Notes: a model not told the origin generated them from the sequence alone. DNA of 55,232 bases from Candidatus Sungiibacteriota bacterium (GCA_016432465.1 CP066690.1:1-55232), one strand, 5' to 3'; positions 1,222 to 45,922 are shown, counted from the stretch's first letter. Made by a program: numbers and translations.

Positions 1222-2349
1222 TTAAATCCCTTCTTTGCGTAGTTCTTGGAGTATATCTTTTAGGCGCTTGTTAATTTTCTTTGGAATTTCAACTTTAATT
1301 TCAATCAATAGATCCCCGCGACCGTAACCGGAAGATAGATACGCTCCCTTGCCGCGAATTTTAAGAATGTCTCCGGGCTGCGTGCCTTCCGGAATTTTCA
1401 GGCGTATAGCGCCATCAATAGTTTCAACTTCGGCCATATCCCCTAGTATTGCTTGAGAAAGTTTTATCGGAAGCTGCATTATAATATCATCACCCTGACG
1501 ACGAAATATTTTATGCGGCTCAATGTTGATTTTAATATAAAGGTCACCCGGAATTCCTCCGGTCGCCGACGCCTCTCCCTTGCCAGTAATTTTTAGAATT
1601 TCTCCTTCCCGCACTCCTTTGGGAATAAATACTTCGAGACGTTCAATGGTTTGTTCCACTCCCCTGCCGCGACACTCGCTGCAAGTTGTTTCCGGGCGCT
1701 TGCCCGATCCATTGCATTCTGGACAAGTACTTACTTGGGTGAAAGATCCAAGGAATGTGCGTTGAGTTTTTTGAATATTGCCTTTCCCGAGACAGGCGGG
1801 ACAGGATTTTAATTTGGCTCCGGGTTCTCCTCCGGAACCTTGACATCGTTTGCAACGCGAAAGTTTGGAGAGTTCAAGCTCCCGCTTGGCACCCATGATT
1901 GATTCTTCAAATGAGATGCGTTCCTCAACCTTAATATCTCGTCCCCTTCGTTCGCCGGTTCTGCGTTTTGTACCAACTGAGCCCATGCCAAAAAAGTCTT
2001 CAAAAACATCGGAAAAATCAAAGTCGGCAAAACCGCCCGCCCCCCCTTCACCAAAATCAAAACGAAAACCGCCGGGCCATTCCCCGCCAGAGGCGGGTCC
2101 GCCTCGGGCGGAAAATCCGAACCCTCCCTGCTGCCCCCCTGTAAATACTTGCCCAAACTGGTCGTACTGCGTACGCTTTTGGTCGTCAGAGAGCACCTGA
2201 TAGGCCTCATTTAGTTCTTTGAAACGGGCTTCGTCTCCCCCCTTATCAGGATGGTATTTATGGGCAAGCTCGCGGTACTTCTTTTTTATTTCGTCTTTTG
2301 TGGCGTTGCGTGCAACACCTAAGACTTTATAGTAGTCTTTGGGCATCAT
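1222..2349 (-). CDS. dnaJ: Chaperone DnaJ
   Basis: J-domain with HPD, G/F-rich region, four CxxCxGxG repeats. Confidence 0.98.
2083..2112. repeat. Palindromic element (family A) in frame within dnaJ, encoding [10 protein letters not shown]
   Basis: Reverse complement is 29/30 identical to the intergenic copy at 35371-35400. Confidence 0.85.
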
Positions 2350-9473: not shown

Positions 9474-10865
9474 ATGATAAAGCTTTATAATACGCTCACC
9501 CGCAAAAAAGAACTTTTCCGCCCACTCCGCAAAGAGTGGGTTGGTTTATATACTTGTGGGCCTACGGTGTATAATTTTGCGCATATTGGCAATCTGCGGA
9601 CTTATATTTTTGAGGACGTACTGCGTCGCACTATAGAATATGCCGGCTATAAAGTTCGCCATGTTATGAATATTACGGATGTGGACGATAAAATTATTCG
9701 CGATGCCAAAAAAGCAAAAAAAACTATTTTTGAGTTTGTGAAACCATATGAGAAAGCATTTTTTGAGGATCTCAAAAAACTTAATATTGAAAAAGCGTGG
9801 AAATACCCAAAAGCAACCAAGCATATAACCGAAATGGTGCGACTGATAGCCTCTCTTCTCAAAAAGAAACTTGCTTATCAGGTTGATGGGTCAATTTATT
9901 TTGATATCTCCAAATTTAAGACCTATGGTCGCCTGTCCCGTCTGTCACACCGCGAGTTAAAGGCCGGAGCGCGGGTGGATAGTGATGAATATACCAAGCA
10001 CGACGTGCAGGATTTTGTGCTTTGGAAAGAAAAAAAGGCGGGAGAGCCGTCGTGGAAGGCAGTTTTTAGCGCGGGCGGACCCGCCTTCGCTAAAGCTACG
10101 GCGGGCAGGCCGGGTTGGCATTTGGAGTGTTCGGCAATGTCTATGAAATATCTCGGCCCCACTTTTGACATTCATGCCGGCGGCGTGGATTTGATATTTC
10201 CGCACCATGAAAACGAAATTGCCCAATCTGAAGGCGCAACCGGAAAAAAATTTGTAAGATTTTTTGTTGAGGGCGAACACCTTTTAGTTAACGGCGAGAA
10301 AATGTCTAAATCGCTTGGCAATGTTTTTACCCTGCGCGATATAGAGGCCAAAGGTTTTAATCCCCTCGTCTTTCGTTATCTTATTCTTACCTCTCACTAC
10401 CGTTCCAAACTTAATTTTACATGGGAGTCCTTGAAGGCGGCTCAAAACTCTTTAGAGCACTTGCAGAACTTTGTCATACGACTGCGTACCGAGCGCCACC
10501 GAGGTTTAACCTCTATGGCGGGATATCTACGAAAGTTCGGACGGGCGCTGGCTGATGACTTAGACATGCCAGAAGCCTTGTCTGTTGTCTGGGATATAGC
10601 GCATAACTACAACAAAAACCCCCGTAGATATAACTCAAAGGAAATTCTTACTCTTCTCTATGACGCTGACAGGGTTCTTGGACTAGGACTAAAAAGTCTA
10701 AAGTCAGAAGAAATCCCTGTGAAAATTCTTGCTTTAGTTAAAAAACGCGAAGAATATCGGAAAAACAAGGAGTGGACAAAGGCTGATAGGGTCCGCTCCC
10801 GGATTATAACTTGGGGCTATACTGTTGAAGATACACCCATGGGACCTCTGACAAGGAGGCGTTAA
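9474..10865 (+). CDS. cysS: Cysteine--tRNA ligase
   Basis: CGPTVY, HIGN, RPGWHLECSAM, DIHAGGVDLIFPHHENE, KMSKS. Confidence 0.98.
   Translation: MIKLYNTLTRKKELFRPLRKEWVGLYTCGPTVYNFAHIGNLRTYIFEDVLRRTIEYAGYKVRHVMNITDVDDKIIRDAKKAKKTIFEFVKPYEKAFFEDLKKLNIEKAWKYPKATKHITEMVRLIASLLKKKLAYQVDGSIYFDISKFKTYGRLSRLSHRELKAGARVDSDEYTKHDVQDFVLWKEKKAGEPSWKAVFSAGGPAFAKATAGRPGWHLECSAMSMKYLGPTFDIHAGGVDLIFPHHENEIAQSEGATGKKFVRFFVEGEHLLVNGEKMSKSLGNVFTLRDIEAKGFNPLVFRYLILTSHYRSKLNFTWESLKAAQNSLEHLQNFVIRLRTERHRGLTSMAGYLRKFGRALADDLDMPEALSVVWDIAHNYNKNPRRYNSKEILTLLYDADRVLGLGLKSLKSEEIPVKILALVKKREEYRKNKEWTKADRVRSRIITWGYTVEDTPMGPLTRRR
10080..10105. repeat. Palindromic element (family C) in frame within cysS, encoding PAFAKATA
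   Basis: CCCGCCTTCGCTAAAGCTACGGCGGG; related copy at 43904-43930. Confidence 0.8.
10494..10520. repeat. Short hairpin within the cysS C-terminal region (RHRGLTSMA)
   Basis: CGCCA-C-CGAGGTT-T-AACCTCT-A-TGGCG imperfect palindrome. Confidence 0.45.
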
Positions 10866-25520: not shown

Positions 25521-25620
25521 TTTATCCACGCACCAGCCGCCAGAGGCGAGCCTCGCTTGTGGCGGGAAGACCACGGGCTCGGGAAGTCAGACTTCCCATG
25601 GGAAGTCTGACTTCCCGTGG
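25521..25620. repeat. Family A repeat followed by a perfect 36-bp tandem palindrome (GGGAAGTCAGACTTCCC family D)
   Basis: 25521-25551 is 30/31 identical to 44779-44809; 25581-25616 is a perfect palindrome. Confidence 0.85.
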
Positions 25621-35370: not shown

Positions 35371-35400
35371 TCCGCCGGAGGCGGACCCGCCTCTGGCGGG
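35371..35400. repeat. Family A palindrome, intergenic copy
   Basis: TCCGCCGGAGGCGGACCCGCCTCTGGCGGG. Confidence 0.85.
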
Positions 35401-35805: not shown

Positions 35806-35832
35806 GGAAGTAAGCTCTTGGAGAGCGCCCTT

Positions 35833-35849
35833 GGGAAGTCAGACTTCCC
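35833..35849. repeat. Family D palindrome GGGAAGTCAGACTTCCC
   Basis: Same as the units at 25581-25616; variant at 39709-39725. Confidence 0.75.
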
Positions 35850-39694: not shown

Positions 39695-40306
39695 CTACTC
39701 GGCAGCAAGGGAAGTCTGACTTCTCAAGCTGCCGCGTTTTCTGTCGGACGAAAGATAAAACCGCCACAATTTATTCTTCCAGAGACCTGCATACTCCACC
39801 CCTATTCTTTTTCCTCGCCTGATTTGGCGGGGATTTATGTTAGTGCCGCGATCCTCAATCCAAAGGCCGCTCGTTTTTATTGCGGGTTTTCCGTTGAAAC
39901 GTTTATTAATTTTGAAACAGCGGCATACCTTTCCCGGTCCAATGATATGTAATACCCCAACATTCTCAAGTTTGTTGGTGTGTTGTGATGGAATGACTAC
40001 CGAACGCACCAATAAGGCGGCGGGGTACCCCTTTCTTTCGGTCACGATATTAAGACAGTGGTGTATTCCGTAAATAAGATAAACGTACCAGCATCCCGGC
40101 TTGTCAAACATTACTTTAGTTCTCTCAGTCTTTCCGCGGGAAGCATGCGAGGCCTTGTCTTTCGGTCCCACATACGCTTCAACTTCTGTAATCATACCCG
40201 CGACAGTTTTTTTACCTATTTTCCGCACCAAAAATTTACCCAATAATTCTTGGGCAACTTTAAGCGTAGGACGGTTAAAAAATGTTGGCAAAAGAACTTT
40301 TTTCAT
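39695..40306 (-). CDS. mpg: 3-methyladenine DNA glycosylase (MPG family)
   Basis: FFNRPTLKVAQELLGK, ITEVEAY, YVYLIYGIHHCLNIV, GPGK, RIGV. Confidence 0.93.
   Translation of the reverse strand: MKKVLLPTFFNRPTLKVAQELLGKFLVRKIGKKTVAGMITEVEAYVGPKDKASHASRGKTERTKVMFDKPGCWYVYLIYGIHHCLNIVTERKGYPAALLVRSVVIPSQHTNKLENVGVLHIIGPGKVCRCFKINKRFNGKPAIKTSGLWIEDRGTNINPRQIRRGKRIGVEYAGLWKNKLWRFYLSSDRKRGSLRSQTSLAAE
39950..39985. repeat. Family B element in frame in mpg, encoding QHTNKLENVGVL
   Basis: 29/36 nt identical to the ychF copy. Confidence 0.85.
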
Positions 40307-42211: not shown

Positions 42212-42925
42212 ATGCAGAAAGTGAACATTTATGAGTTACCGCTCGCGTTTAACGTTTGCGATCAGCTTCTTAGAGAGATTGAACAGTCACAACGGTGGTC
42301 AATGGCGCATGTACTGATGAATCCCAAAGCATGGTCATTACTTCACGAACACCATCGAGTGGATGAAGCATACATCATAACCCATGGCAGTGGTCATCTG
42401 ATTCGTGGAGACACTGTATTTGCTGTCCAGGCAGGAGACGTTTTGTGGATACCACGACATACCCGTCACAAGCTCATCAATACTAGCGCAACTAGTCTTG
42501 AGCATTTAGTTTTAGCCGCGCCACCTTTCGATTCGGCAGATGTTTACCTGGATGAGAGTTGGGGCGATCCGAAAGCAACCCCTCAACCATTTGTGCAACC
42601 ACCGGTGGATGACTGTTTTGACGGGGCAAGGATTATTGCTTACGAATTAACTGGTGTGGCGAGCATCGCATTTGGTTGGGTTATGGCTGACCCAACACGG
42701 CACAAACCGGCCCACTATAACAAGGATATAACGGAGTGGATATGTGTAGTTGAGGGTGGCGGCTTTATTGAGGTTGATGGCGTTTCTTACCCTATCCGGC
42801 GTGGAGATTGGATTCGCATTGATCCGGATGAGAAACACGCTCTACGAAACAGAAATGACCAACACATGATTGTCGTCTGCATCTGCACACCATGTTTCAA
42901 GATGGAAGATGTGCATTACAAGTAA
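42212..42925 (+). CDS. Tandem two-domain cupin protein
   Basis: HEHH..DEAYII..G.G...AGDVLWIP...H and H......E...V.EG.G...RGD...I...E.H. Confidence 0.85.
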   Translation: MQKVNIYELPLAFNVCDQLLREIEQSQRWSMAHVLMNPKAWSLLHEHHRVDEAYIITHGSGHLIRGDTVFAVQAGDVLWIPRHTRHKLINTSATSLEHLVLAAPPFDSADVYLDESWGDPKATPQPFVQPPVDDCFDGARIIAYELTGVASIAFGWVMADPTRHKPAHYNKDITEWICVVEGGGFIEVDGVSYPIRRGDWIRIDPDEKHALRNRNDQHMIVVCICTPCFKMEDVHYK

Positions 42926-42933
42926 AACACATG

Positions 42934-42966
42934 AAGCCTCACTGCGTATTGTAGCGAGGCTTTTTC
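42934..42966 (+). terminator. Intrinsic terminator after the cupin gene
   Basis: AAGCCTC...GAGGCTT followed by T-tract. Confidence 0.7.
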
Positions 42967-43255
42967 TTTTGAGGAATCACGGTCGCGCAACAATCTGAGA
43001 GCGCCCGGTCTTTCGAACGGGCGCTCAAGCTACCGGGAGATTTTGAACGACGTTAGAACCTACTTTGAGGGTATCAGAAACTGGCAACCCTTTCCAGATT
43101 TCAGCAAGGTTTTCTCATAAAAAAGATTGGTGCGCGGGAGGAATCGCTTGCTTTGATTTTCTATGCATTTCGTTTTCTAGCGATCTACTTTTTCATACAT
43201 CCGAAAAGATAAAAATAGGGACTTCTTATGAAGCCCCACAGCTATAGATTATGGA

Positions 43256-43558
43256 TCAACGCACCCCAATTCTATCTAACCATTCACCAGATGATTCTAG
43301 AGCCCTGTTGTTTTCGTCAACTCGTACGTTATCCCATGGTTTATCAACGCGCACCTTACCGTACCAATGGTAAAGTTCAGCCTCCGCATCAGGGTGGCGG
43401 TCTAGATAGCGGTTGAGCCAAGATCTCCAGCAACGAATCACTACTTTGGCGACACACCGATATAGGAATGCAAACGCGATCAGAATTAGCGCACCCTCAA
43501 AGAACGTAATATCTCTTAACATGATGTCCTCCATCATTCCAGTTACTGCGGACAGCAT
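43256..43558 (-). CDS. Small hypothetical protein with one TM segment
   Basis: 100 aa ORF with a hydrophobic stretch. Confidence 0.45.
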   Translation of the reverse strand: MLSAVTGMMEDIMLRDITFFEGALILIAFAFLYRCVAKVVIRCWRSWLNRYLDRHPDAEAELYHWYGKVRVDKPWDNVRVDENNRALESSGEWLDRIGVR

Positions 43559-43652
43559 ATATCATCGCGGATTATATTGCAAGAGCATCCTATTTAGGTT
43601 CGATTTCCCACTTCTCTCCAACAAAATAACCGCGTAGATTGCGGTTATTTTA

Positions 43653-43892
43653 TCACAGAAGGTGTCTTTTCAGGAATGCTCTGCCAGAGCCAGATTTGAG
43701 GTATTTCTCGAAAGCAAGCGCCTTCTTTTTGTCGTTGAACGTGCAGTACCACACTAATTTCCACGGACGTTTACGCGAGGTGTAGTCGTCACCTCCTTGA
43801 TTATGGACTTTCAATCGTTCCTTCAAATCTTCTGTAAATCCTTTATACAAACTTCCATCTTTTAAACTTTTTGTTATGTAGATGTAATACAT
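43653..43892 (-). CDS. Solo GIY-YIG nuclease (79 aa)
   Basis: MYYIYITKS...YKGFTEDLKERL..HN...PWKLVWY...A..FEKYLKSGSGR. Confidence 0.9.
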   Translation of the reverse strand: MYYIYITKSLKDGSLYKGFTEDLKERLKVHNQGGDDYTSRKRPWKLVWYCTFNDKKKALAFEKYLKSGSGRAFLKRHLL

Positions 43893-43903
43893 AAAAAAAC
43901 ATG

Positions 43904-44020
43904 CCCGCCTCCGCACAAGGCTACGGCGGGTCCTTCGCTCTGCTTAGGAGCAGTAGTCTTTCAAGTACATTAAAGGCGGCTGTGCCGGCCGAAGCTCTGA
44001 GCAGAGCGAAGAGCGAAGGA
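43904..44020. repeat. Palindromic repeats between the tRNA-Glu 3' end and the GIY-YIG gene
   Basis: Family C copy at 43904-43930; IR TCCTTCGCTCT (43931-43941) / AGAGCGAAGGA (44010-44020). Confidence 0.8.
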
Positions 44021-44094
44021 CGGCCCCAATGGGATTCGAACCCATGATCTTCTGGATGAGAACCAGATATCCTAGACCACTAGACGATGGGGCC
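44021..44094 (-). tRNA. tRNA-Glu(CTC)
   Basis: GGCCCCA/TGGGGCC acceptor, TCTGG-TTCTCAT-CCAGA anticodon arm, GGTTCGAATCC. Confidence 0.96.
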
Positions 44095-44248
44095 ACAAAG
44101 ATAGATTTAGTTTTATAATTTTAAACATAACTCTCCGCGTTTTCAAGTCTATTGATATTTACTATATGGTATGTTATAATACAATTAGTGCGGGCTGGAT
44201 GCCCCAGTCCCGTAACTGCCCGCGAGTACCGGGCAAAGGAGGTTAGTC

Positions 44249-44734
44249 ATGGGTAACGCCACGAGAACTGGCGGCGCATTGGCCAGGTTGATCGCGCTTT
44301 CGGCAAGTGCGATCCACCTTGTCCAAGAAGGTCACCGCGACAGTTCCCAGATCGCAGACCTCCTGGAGGCGCTACAGGCCTTCAAGGAAGGACGAGTTGA
44401 CCCTTACCTCAACCGGCCAGCTTTGAGGCCAAACCAAGTACTGTGCTTGTGCCAGTTGAGGCCGGGGACGACAATTCACGAGCATTATACGAGTAGGTAC
44501 GAAATATGCTGCATGGTGCTATCTTTTCCGTACGTCAAGTTTCTTGGGGGAAAGCCCACATGGTGGATCACTGTCCAATATCCAGATAAATCGACTCAGA
44601 GCATATCGTTGGCAGATAGTGGTGTAGTACCCTATACTGACGGCATGTGGAATGATTCAAGCTGGTTAAGCTTTGATGGTCAACCTGATCTCCACTCCCG
44701 AAACTGCCGTTACTTTCACTTTCAAAAGAAGTAG
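44249..44734 (+). CDS. Hypothetical protein
   Basis: 161 aa ORF preceded by GGAGG and followed by a terminator. Confidence 0.7.
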   Translation: MGNATRTGGALARLIALSASAIHLVQEGHRDSSQIADLLEALQAFKEGRVDPYLNRPALRPNQVLCLCQLRPGTTIHEHYTSRYEICCMVLSFPYVKFLGGKPTWWITVQYPDKSTQSISLADSGVVPYTDGMWNDSSWLSFDGQPDLHSRNCRYFHFQKK

Positions 44735-44743
44735 CAAAAATCC

Positions 44744-44781
44744 GGGCAGGGTGGGTATTGAACACACCCTGCCCTTTTTTT
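44744..44781 (+). terminator. Intrinsic terminator
   Basis: GGGCAGGGTG/CACCCTGCCC stem plus T-tract. Confidence 0.8.
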
Positions 44782-44835
44782 ATCCACGCCCCAGCCGCCA
44801 GAGGCGAGCGATGCTGGGCCACTGGCGGCTGGCGG
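44779..44835. repeat. Family A-type repeat
   Basis: 44779-44809 nearly identical to 25521-25551. Confidence 0.75.
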
Positions 44836-44872
44836 ACGAAGGATAAAACTCCGGGCTTAACCGGAGTTCCAA

Positions 44873-45922
44873 CTACCCAACTGTTACTCCTCGCAAAAAG
44901 GCAGCCGCTTCTTCGGGAACGATATTATTGATATAAAGTCCCGTTCCCCATTCAAAGCCACCGAGACGAGTAATACGCGGGACAAATTCAAAGTGATGGT
45001 GAAATTGTGGAAACTCTACCTCACCGTTACGTAAAAGACCGTTATGCAGGTAGAAGTTATACGCTGGCGGCGGAGTAGTAATCTTAGCGAGACGTTTAGC
45101 CACTTGATTCACTACTTCCACAAGACCCCGAATGTAACGTGGCGCACTTTCTTCGTAGCGCGGAATGTGTTCTTTGGGAAGAACCCAGATTTCAAAGGGT
45201 GAGCGGGAAGCAAGAGGAGTTAGAGCAACCGCATAGTCGTTGGCGAAAAATATGCGATCCCGGTACTCCATTTCCTGACGCAGGGTATCACAATATACAC
45301 AAGAATTCTCGTCGTTATAATAACTTTCGGCGTCCTTAAATTCCTTCTCAATCAGCGGCGGTACAATGGGTAATCCGATCAACTGACAATGGGAGTGTTC
45401 AAGCGAGGCTCCGGCAGCCCAGCCTTCATTTCTGAAAATTAAGATGTACTGGAAACGCTTGTCTCGTCGCAAATCAAGAATACGTTCCCTAAAGGCCCAA
45501 AACAAATCATTGGTGCGCTCCAAAGAAAAATCAGCAAAAAATTCATCGTGTCGCGGCGTGTCAATAATAACCTCATGCGCCCCAAAACCGGGCAGTATAC
45601 GAAAGACGCCAAACTTCTGCTGCTGCAGGGGTATTCCTCCGGGAATGGCCTCAATGGATACGGCTGGAAATTTATTGGGAACTATGCGCAGAGACCAATG
45701 CCCTTCTTTTTTATATTCAAGAATGGTTGGCTTGGGGGTTTTATCTTCGTTCCCGGGACAAAAGGGACATTTCTTGATACGTTCCTCAAGGATTTCGGGT
45801 TCTTTTCTCTCGGTAGAACCATCCGTAACCTCCCCCGGCCGTAAATGCCGTATTGGCGCAACAATACACCAGCGATTCGTGGATTTTTCACGACGAAATT
45901 CTGAAAATCTTCCTTCTGGCAT
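44873..45922 (-). CDS. galT: Galactose-1-phosphate uridylyltransferase (GalT family)
   Basis: CPFCPGNE, VPNKFPA, GAHEVII, GASLEHSHCQ (HxHxQ). Confidence 0.93.
   Translation of the reverse strand: MPEGRFSEFRREKSTNRWCIVAPIRHLRPGEVTDGSTERKEPEILEERIKKCPFCPGNEDKTPKPTILEYKKEGHWSLRIVPNKFPAVSIEAIPGGIPLQQQKFGVFRILPGFGAHEVIIDTPRHDEFFADFSLERTNDLFWAFRERILDLRRDKRFQYILIFRNEGWAAGASLEHSHCQLIGLPIVPPLIEKEFKDAESYYNDENSCVYCDTLRQEMEYRDRIFFANDYAVALTPLASRSPFEIWVLPKEHIPRYEESAPRYIRGLVEVVNQVAKRLAKITTPPPAYNFYLHNGLLRNGEVEFPQFHHHFEFVPRITRLGGFEWGTGLYINNIVPEEAAAFLRGVTVG

Follow-up and report, generated by a model that had tools for sequence, protein, structure and literature searches.

We analyzed a 55,232-nt stretch of DNA (the window) from a Candidatus Sungiibacteriota bacterium (GCA_016432465.1, CP066690.1:1-55232) and propose, at a probability of roughly 0.55, that its positions 44020-43653 hold a selfish cassette of tRNA 3' ends, in which a hairpin leader is combined with a minimal GIY-YIG nuclease that, by analogy, would act on the hairpin in the manner of the Ssn family. 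That family consists of single-domain GIY-YIG nucleases with cognate hairpin repeats (Chenal et al. 2025, Nat Commun, PMC11893778). A cassette with fixed boundaries recurs behind different tRNAs, in unrelated contexts, and across phyla. The window represents the first 55 kb of a genome that is a single contig (923,469 bp, 46% GC), and the closest protein homologues with source names belong to Patescibacteria lineages.

Layout of the locus

Read on the minus strand, the sequence presents a promoter-like site, tRNA-Glu(CTC), a leader (44020-43893), a GIY-YIG open reading frame (ORF) of 79 amino acids, and a hairpin after the stop codon. An earlier sequence-only reading had described tRNA-Glu, a foldback, a palindrome of the repeat family also seen in cysS (family C), a gap of ∼11 bp, and the 79-residue GIY-YIG gene on this strand, and all of these parts were present. 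The features are the following.

44118-44146, minus strand: sigma-70-like promoter TTGAAA-17-TAAAAT, 10/12 consensus matches, ∼22 nt 5' of the tRNA
44021-44094, minus strand: intact tRNA-Glu(CTC), full length, 64.9 bits with Infernal (ARAGORN call, 44095-44018)
43931-44020, minus strand: leader foldback of 89 nt, the first part of the leader, with 12-nt arms and inner arms
43984-44024, minus strand: alternative local hairpin H1, GCCGTCC-TTCGC-[TCTTCGC TCT GCTCAGA]-GCTTC-GGCCGGC
43904-43930, minus strand: family C-type GC hairpin of 27 nt in reverse orientation, CCCGCC-GTAGCC-TTG-TGCGGA-GGCGGG (CCCGCC-N15-GGCGGG)
43653-43892, minus strand: GIY-YIG nuclease gene with ATG start, 79 amino acids, single domain of the Slx1/UPF0213 type (Pfam PF01541)
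43623-43651, minus strand: hairpin with an 11-bp stem, AAAATAACCGC-N7-GCGGTTATTTT, directly after the stop codon and outside the conserved unit

The acceptor stem of tRNA-Glu (GGCCCCA/TGGGGCC) places the discriminator at G44021, and the 'TCC' added in the ARAGORN call is therefore part of the next element; CCA is not encoded. According to ARAGORN there is no second tRNA-Glu(CTC) in the genome, the window copy being the only one. The TTGAAA-17-TAAAAT sequence was the sole promoter-like site ahead of tRNA-Glu and the ORF on the minus strand, and it may drive both.

The leader begins with a foldback whose outer arms, GTCCTTCGCTCT (44021-44010) and AGAGCGAAGGAC (43941-43930), are 12 nt long and 100% complementary and which has a second, inner arm pair of 15 nt; no further copy of the 89-nt foldback was found in the 923-kb genome. 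The alternative hairpin H1 takes the final 4 nt of tRNA-Glu into its outer stem and carries a core, TTCGC...GCTWC, that is common to several phyla. The family C-type hairpin is separated from the ATG at 43892 by 11 nt (CATGTTTTTTT), with a T7 run at 43899-43893. The hairpin at 43623-43651 is likely a terminator. On the plus strand, a T-arm/acceptor-like stretch (GGTTCGATTTCCCACTTCTCTCCA, 43585-43625) converges on the 3' end of the GIY-YIG gene; this stretch may be a decayed tRNA 3' fragment, an assignment without statistical support.

Boundaries of the unit

The nearest homologues of the nuclease gene (72-95% identity) were located in unrelated neighborhoods, next to recG, an ABC transporter gene, L33/pseudouridine synthase/L19 genes, or methyltransferase genes. 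In those close homologues for which an upstream tRNA was called, a common leader started right after the discriminator base and had the order TCCTTCGCTC..GCTWCGGCCGGCACAGCCGCC, an AT-rich variable stretch, GAGCGAAGGA, CCGCC-G[TA]AGC...GCGAAGG[AC]GG, and ATG. The upstream tRNAs were as listed; one more locus (L170) possessed the leader with no called tRNA.

L168, L169, L176, and L178: tRNA-Ser(GCT)
L174 and L175: tRNA-Ser(GGA)
L171: tRNA-Trp(CCA)
Window element: tRNA-Glu(CTC)

Four elements situated behind tRNA-Glu, tRNA-Ser(GGA), and tRNA-Ser(GCT) were aligned (alignment A1) and were alike from the junction ...CCG/TCCTTCGC to the stop codon, not beyond. Since the similarity begins at the tRNA/leader junction and is lost after the stop codon, the unit was defined as window 44020-43653, or 368 nt. 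Alignment of homologous elements showed that both foldback arms were kept, on the element side TCCTTCGCTC... (44020-44010) and ...GAGCGAAGGA (43941-43931), around an AT-rich center that differed among genomes. The inner helix exhibited compensatory changes within the close set (TCT..AGA versus TCC..GGA; GC..GC versus GT..AC), and the same family C-type hairpin preceded the ORF in the close homologues and also in a Planctomycetota locus (L139). The tRNA-Glu(CTC) genes of six relatives were followed after the discriminator by unrelated sequence with no such element. On the basis of these sequence comparisons, we conclude that the hairpin leader and the nuclease gene are a unit and not accidental neighbors.

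The encoded protein

The Pfam GIY-YIG profile (PF01541) matched residues 1-69 with an E value of 6.7e-18 and 65.2 bits (cut-off 22.6). The domain spans the whole 79-residue protein, which has no NUMOD, zinc finger, or helix-turn-helix domain. Matches by sequence in the Protein Data Bank (PDB) were UPF0213 proteins (1ZG2, E value 3e-8; 1YWL, E value 8e-4). An AlphaFold model with a mean confidence score (pLDDT) of 92 had the arrangement beta-beta-alpha-beta-alpha-alpha and resembled the Slx1 nuclease domain (template modeling (TM) score 0.71-0.74, root mean square deviation 1.7-2.0 Å, 27-38% identity, E value 3e-3), with a weak match to I-TevI (TM score ∼0.5, 15% identity, E value 0.2-0.4). Six residues (Y5, Y16, G18, R26, H30, and E62) were invariant in 34 diverse sequences, and the catalytic residues were conserved in 133 distinct sequences. 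A C-terminal Asn is typical of the UvrC/homing-endonuclease lineage (Dunin-Horkawicz 2006, PMC1564403). As judged from the sequence matches and the model, the protein is a minimal Slx1/UPF0213-like GIY-YIG domain and probably an active enzyme.

Linkage to tRNA 3' ends in related genomes and across phyla

All 79 small GIY-YIG loci of 20 related genomes were collected. Twenty-five were situated within 250 nt of a tRNA gene, compared to ∼4% expected (binomial P = 2e-16), and 24 of these 25 were on the same strand as the tRNA. Most of the tRNA-adjacent loci in the relatives had a partial copy of the same tRNA on the opposite side of the ORF, with the break in the D-, anticodon-, or T-loop; the window locus belongs to a different subtype, in which the element lies 3' of the tRNA and no tRNA duplication is present. 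The sequence-only reading had noted the adjacency of the tRNA but missed linkage to the tRNA 3' end as the defining feature. Downstream of the intact tRNA-Glu(CTC) of one relative (L256, G007:C40) lies an incomplete duplicate of this tRNA in which ∼100 nt of extra sequence interrupts the T-loop.

Scans of genome and metagenome contigs yielded 160 homologue loci with 46-95% identity, distributed over Bradyrhizobium, other Alphaproteobacteria, Gammaproteobacteria, Planctomycetota, Verrucomicrobiota, Bacteroidota, Saccharibacteria, and many Parcubacteria-type lineages; the cross-phylum identity of the 79-residue protein was 46-63%. A same-strand tRNA was present at most 400 nt upstream in 118 of the 145 loci that had at least 300 nt of upstream sequence, whereas a nearby tRNA on the opposite strand occurred in 0 of 78 loci in the subset checked (genome contigs). 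In the cross-phylum loci at least 20 tRNA species were used, and the gap between tRNA and gene had a median of 138 nt and a minimum of 29 nt. The leader nearly always started with a hairpin of core TTCGC-loop-GCTAC that contained two conserved pyrimidine-pyrimidine mismatches, and in dozens of loci its outer stem included the CCA (or CCG) end of the tRNA and a 3-nt linker, which covaried with its pairing partner (CGC/GCG, GCC/GGC, GAC/GTC, TCT/AGA). A minimal version (e.g., L205) was reduced to the tRNA, a hairpin of 22-26 nt, ∼8 nt, and the ATG. The leader can also be multiplied: six tandem hairpin modules of ∼90 nt lie between tRNA-Ala(CGC) and the GIY-YIG start in a metagenome contig (L230, Ga0265339_10004328), and two or three tandem modules were seen in several Bradyrhizobium-type loci.

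These data bear on the possibility that a tRNA, terminator-like GC hairpins, and a small housekeeping nuclease gene have come together by chance, to which we assign next to no credence. Taken alone, one family C copy beside one GIY-YIG gene is indeed insignificant (P ∼0.08, an estimate for ∼12 copies and 10 loci). Chance is nevertheless refuted by the recurrence of the arrangement across phyla in those 118 of 145 homologous loci, by conservation of the leader at the nucleotide level, and by the tRNA-adjacency statistics from the relatives (P = 2e-16).

Other small GIY-YIG genes of the genome

The genome contains 11 matches to PF01541, comprising one UvrC-like gene and ten small genes or pseudogenes. 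Three of the GIY-YIG loci adjoin tRNA genes; at 294 and 405 kb, small GIY-YIG genes lie between tRNA fragments and an intact tRNA. The partial tRNAs were detected by BLAST-short and local alignment, an Rfam scan around the GIY-YIG loci (E value up to 5) having found no partial tRNAs. A split or intron-containing tRNA was considered for the 294-kb locus and rejected because the halves give no matching acceptor stem and an intact tRNA intervenes. One of the small pseudogenes lies inside the 16S rRNA gene (C1:680038-680187, L007 839-988) and is interrupted by TGA/TAG stops. Just 3' of the 16S gene, at L007 1473-1818, group II intron domains were matched (RF01998, 43.5 bits; RF02001, 29.5 bits).

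The presence of ten small copies, some of them pseudogenes, was counted in favor of mobility of the cassette. The alternative is that the gene is a domesticated, host-serving Ssn-like nuclease, i.e., a stable gene that acts on dispersed hairpins and, for example, modulates uptake or recombination of single-stranded DNA (ssDNA) as SsnA does in Neisseria, with the tRNA supplying only constitutive transcription and the cassette being immobile. Such stability would fit the position behind tRNA-Ala in 33/33 loci examined from Bradyrhizobium and related Alphaproteobacteria, the strong conservation of the catalytic residues, and the cellular role of SsnA in transformation, which has been demonstrated in Neisseria (PMC11893778). 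We nonetheless consider domestication unlikely for the window gene: homologues of 72-95% identity occupy unrelated neighborhoods behind different tRNAs, multiple copies, pseudogenes, and the copy within the 16S rRNA gene are present, related clades reside inside partial tRNA duplications, and the cross-phylum identity of 46-63% together with the sharp element boundaries points to horizontal movement.

Hairpin type follows the nuclease clade

In a tree of 95 small GIY-YIG proteins, the window protein fell in a clade of 18 members (SH-aLRT 94), and TTCGC/GCGAA-type hairpins were flagged upstream of 17 of them. Other clades had other upstream motifs, including CCCGTTAGAGA, GTCCCGATTT, CCCCACACC, double hairpins, and GTCAT...AATC. 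The hairpin-type label changed 23 times on the tree compared to a mean of 38 after shuffling, and none of 200 shuffles gave a value as low. We conclude that the hairpin type is specific to each GIY-YIG clade.

The clade was searched for in 201 genomes of the class by use of a hidden Markov model (built from alignment A2; cut-off 100 bits); a single-sequence E value had failed to separate the clade of H1-bearing genes, the clade with the CCCGTTAGAGA motif scoring equally. Besides the window's own genome, 30 genomes held the clade and 170 did not. The family C pattern, CCKHCGCN{3,5}GCTWCGG, gave 711 matches over the 201 genomes versus 71 for the reversed control. The sequence-only reading had suggested comparing family C copy number with GIY-YIG gene number, and this check came out positive: the median was 6 copies in genomes with the clade versus 1 in those without (Mann-Whitney P = 4e-6; Fisher odds ratio 9.0; n = 200; kinship ignored). 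When two copies per cassette were subtracted, the median of the clade-bearing genomes was still 3.5. The hairpin of this clade (core TTCGC-loop-GCTAC, family C type) is thus also dispersed as solo copies, which are more numerous in the genomes that hold the clade.

Family C and the copy within cysS

The cysS gene (ORF 9474-10865) carries the 26-nt palindrome CCCGCCTTCGCTAAAGCTACGGCGGG in frame at 10080-10105, where it is read as PAFAKATAG directly before the conserved RPGWH of cysteinyl-tRNA synthetase. The hairpin ahead of the nuclease gene, CCCGCCTCCGCACAAGGCTACGGCGGG on the plus strand and GTAGC...GCGAA relative to the GIY-YIG coding strand, is in the opposite orientation. An ungapped search (up to 3 mismatches) identified no other copy of the 27-nt hairpin within the window. 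The claim that it belongs to the repeat family of cysS holds as to type, since 22/27 positions are identical, but the match appears only after reverse-complementing and with one indel. A fuzzy regular expression made from the cysS copy (up to 5 edits) returned 11 genome copies, missing the copy beside the nuclease gene, and was replaced by the family C pattern given above. With that pattern this genome has 17 copies versus 0 for the reversed control, and the copy beside the nuclease gene is matched at 43908-43926. About 6 of the 17 copies are inside ORFs (cysS and about five others), and two, at 43908 and 405712, adjoin a GIY-YIG gene or tRNA end (binomial P ∼0.01).

Comparison with known systems

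SsnA (94 amino acids) binds its NTS/SRM hairpin only as ssDNA, leaves RNA unbound, and cuts a few nucleotides upstream; the NTS/SRM repeats flank the ssn gene and fill the genome, and their number is linked to presence of the gene (PMC11893778). The window element shares with the Ssn family a single-domain GIY-YIG protein of 80-95 residues, with Y6/Y17/E64 of SsnA matching Y5/Y16/E62, and a cognate hairpin repeat (here family C/H1) that is found beside the gene and dispersed, in numbers tied to presence of the gene. It differs in its hairpin core (TTCGC-loop-GCTAC, in which pyrimidine mismatches are conserved while the outer stem varies), in having hairpins upstream only, within a leader that directly adjoins a tRNA 3' end (tRNA is unmentioned in PMC11893778), and in its place in the tree, where its clade stands apart from the SRM-flanked genes of relatives, although the deep branches are weak. 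The published SRM pattern had 0 matches within positions 42650-45100 of the window and 2 genome-wide, versus 4 in a shuffle; as a positive control, it matched on both sides of the L034 gene of a relative (G011). With no SRM match at the element, the cassette appears Ssn/SRM-like in its working but lacks the sequence-level feature of membership for which it was searched. The L034 gene itself (G011:C10, from the same family) is a small GIY-YIG gene with the canonical Neisseria-type NTS TGTCATTCCCGCRAAAGCGGGAATCCAG on both sides, and true Ssn/SRM elements therefore also occur in these ultra-small bacteria.

The sequence-only reading had further proposed an undescribed nuclease-plus-palindrome system. 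Its observation was confirmed and its interpretation partly supported. The pairing is borne out in that the leader travels with the ORF and the hairpin type follows the clade, but in this genome a GIY-YIG gene is adjacent to no more than 2 of the 17 family C copies; the novelty stands only in part, the Ssn family having already been published along with the analogy to RAYT/REP and IS200, which its authors state (PMC11893778). None of the papers searched described this clade, its hairpin, or its attachment to tRNA ends, and no description of a tRNA-linked GIY-YIG cassette was found in the literature searched (GIY-YIG with tRNA genes, candidate phyla radiation, UPF0213/YhbQ); the general kind, a nuclease plus its cognate hairpin, is that of Ssn.

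Other systems offer partial likenesses. SegB of phages T4/T6 is a free-standing GIY-YIG homing endonuclease encoded in a tRNA gene cluster and preferentially inherited by cutting tRNA-gene DNA (PMC2330249); in both cases the GIY-YIG gene is lodged among or next to tRNA genes, but SegB is multi-domain and recognizes double-stranded sequence, whereas the window gene encodes a bare catalytic domain of 79 residues preceded by a conserved hairpin leader. The best matches of sequence and fold were to Slx1/UPF0213 proteins (YhbQ type; PDB 1ZG2, 1YWL, 4XM5, and 7CQ4). Slx1 is a structure-specific nuclease that acts on flaps, junctions, and stem-loops; the protein described here has no RING domain or Slx4 partner. 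We know of no function for the bacterial UPF0213 structures, and a link to tRNA ends and hairpins was not part of the UPF0213 descriptions found in the literature searched. Rickettsia palindromic elements (RPEs) are 100-150 nt long and, to our knowledge, have no dedicated nuclease. Solo family C copies resemble them in lying in frame inside genes such as cysS but are 26-27 nt long and statistically tied to a nuclease clade. Unlike integrative elements that target tRNA genes, the cassette contains no tyrosine recombinase, and no repeat of the tRNA-Glu 3' end lies downstream of the ORF. The foldback with its 12-nt inverted arms recalls miniature inverted-repeat transposable elements, but it is present in a single genome copy and has no duplication at its ends.

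Repetitive extragenic palindromes (REPs; as bacterial interspersed mosaic elements) and their RAYT genes share with the cassette the combination of a dedicated nuclease gene and dispersed GC-rich palindromes, some of them beside the gene; RAYTs, however, are Y1 HUH enzymes rather than GIY-YIG nucleases, and the hairpins are one-sided here. The genome encodes two Y1_Tnp proteins (196.7 and 537.9 kb) and one tyrosine recombinase (PF00589, 891.7 kb). The statement that the window has no transposase or integrase agrees with the genome-wide searches, which placed no Y1/HUH transposase or tyrosine recombinase there, the window ORFs not each having been scanned for transposases; it does not extend to the genome. 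The first Y1_Tnp gene (196705-197412, a 235-residue frame) is RAYT-like and has a 23-nt REP of its own on either side, the identical palindrome CTATAGAGGTCGGACCTCTATAG (C1:196699-197435), of which the genome has 7 copies. This REP differs from family C, which argues against RAYTs as the agent of family C. The second Y1_Tnp gene (537930-538649) lies ∼1 kb from a GIY-YIG pseudogene.

The same comparisons bear on a reading of the hairpins as signals at the RNA level (in tRNA 3'-end processing or protection, read-through attenuation, mRNA stabilization, or translational control) rather than as nuclease substrates, the solo family C copies being REP-like repeats spread by other means. Pairing of the H1 stem with the tRNA CCA or CCG end would suit such a role, as would the second hairpin followed by T7 just before the ATG, the absence of a separate promoter between tRNA and ORF, a conserved GAAGGAGG in the 3' arm of the second hairpin of relatives, and the RAYT-like genes of the genome. 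The T-run is not conserved in the relatives, however, and the REP on either side of the RAYT-like gene is not of family C. Furthermore, hairpin type tracks the nuclease clade and copy number tracks its presence, neither of which is predicted for a tRNA-processing signal, and in the sister family Ssn the hairpin is the ssDNA recognition site of an enzyme that does not bind RNA. We judge the RNA-level explanation to be decidedly improbable.

Additional repeats and tRNA-like sequences

A double-hairpin repeat of 30 nt, [CT]CCGCCnnnGGCGG[GA][TC]CCGCCnnnGGCGG[AG], has ∼25 copies, many of them in frame in ORFs. Copies are located at window 2083-2112 and 35371-35400, in a helicase gene at 301720, and at C1:294333, 294683, and 295098; three copies of identical sequence interrupt the anticodon loops of tRNA-Ser-like sequences at the GIY-YIG locus at 294 kb. 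A tRNA-Asn-like pseudogene (C1:818431-818623) has double-hairpin inserts in its anticodon loop and T-loop and lies ∼100 nt upstream of an intact tRNA-Asn. A dense array of ∼20 tRNA genes, all on the same strand (C1:439820-442718), duplicates many species found elsewhere in the genome. Within the window, an identical 33-nt palindrome, TTTGTACACTTAAAAGCGATCGCTTTTAAGTGT, occurs twice (537-569 and 1159-1191), and hairpins of the GGGAAGTCAGACTTCCC type have four copies (25578-25616, 35830-35849, and 39706-39725).

Proposed mechanism and its weighing

In the mechanism that we propose for the selfish cassette, the nuclease would, by analogy with Ssn, bind its cognate hairpin in single-stranded or extruded DNA and cut a few nucleotides 5' of it, a position that here corresponds to the junction of tRNA and element. 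If the break or nick were then repaired by copying, further tRNA ends could acquire the cassette, and solo hairpins could reach additional sites. The tRNA would be left intact because the cassette sits after the discriminator base, and we infer that the cassette is expressed from the tRNA promoter, is selfish, and moves horizontally. The solo family C palindromes are possibly its passengers.

Several results weigh against this reading. No target-site duplication or partial duplicate of tRNA-Glu was found around the window element, alignment A1 contained no conserved structure at the right end, and no pair of filled and empty versions of the same tRNA site was found among closely related strains. 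In folding, the advantage of the leader over shuffled sequence was modest (z = -2.8 as DNA and -1.9 as RNA) and two structures competed, and we therefore relied on comparative covariation. In Bradyrhizobium the gene was behind tRNA-Ala(GGC) in 22/22 loci; this linkage looks vertically stable and may reflect domestication. No GIY-YIG gene lies near 15 of the 17 family C copies of this genome, the clade is missing from 20 of the 31 genomes that have at least 8 copies, and the copy-number test was uncorrected for phylogenetic relatedness.

A bolder version, which we offer tentatively and with real doubt, takes the 368-nt unit to be a mobile element that is complete and autonomous and ranks among the smallest known. 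The 79-residue GIY-YIG nuclease, acting in a structure-specific manner, would be its sole protein and the hairpin its sole cis element. The outer stem of this hairpin would pair with the end of the target tRNA (CCA or discriminator) and serve as a built-in guide that sets cleavage and insertion at tRNA 3' ends in any phylum, and the family C palindromes in genes such as cysS would be non-autonomous derivatives mobilized in trans.

Implications

If the selfish-cassette reading is correct, the Ssn principle, in which a bare GIY-YIG domain reads a DNA hairpin, would extend to a second large clade that ranges from Patescibacteria to Bradyrhizobium and would become a source of new single-strand nucleases whose site specificity depends on another recognition motif. 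Pairing of the hairpin with the tRNA end suggests a simple targeting rule. The reading would also explain the small genes annotated as "GIY-YIG family protein" beside tRNA genes, as well as the hairpins and partial copies that litter the tRNA loci of ultra-small bacteria, and it would point to an agent that may have introduced the short in-frame palindromes of their essential genes.

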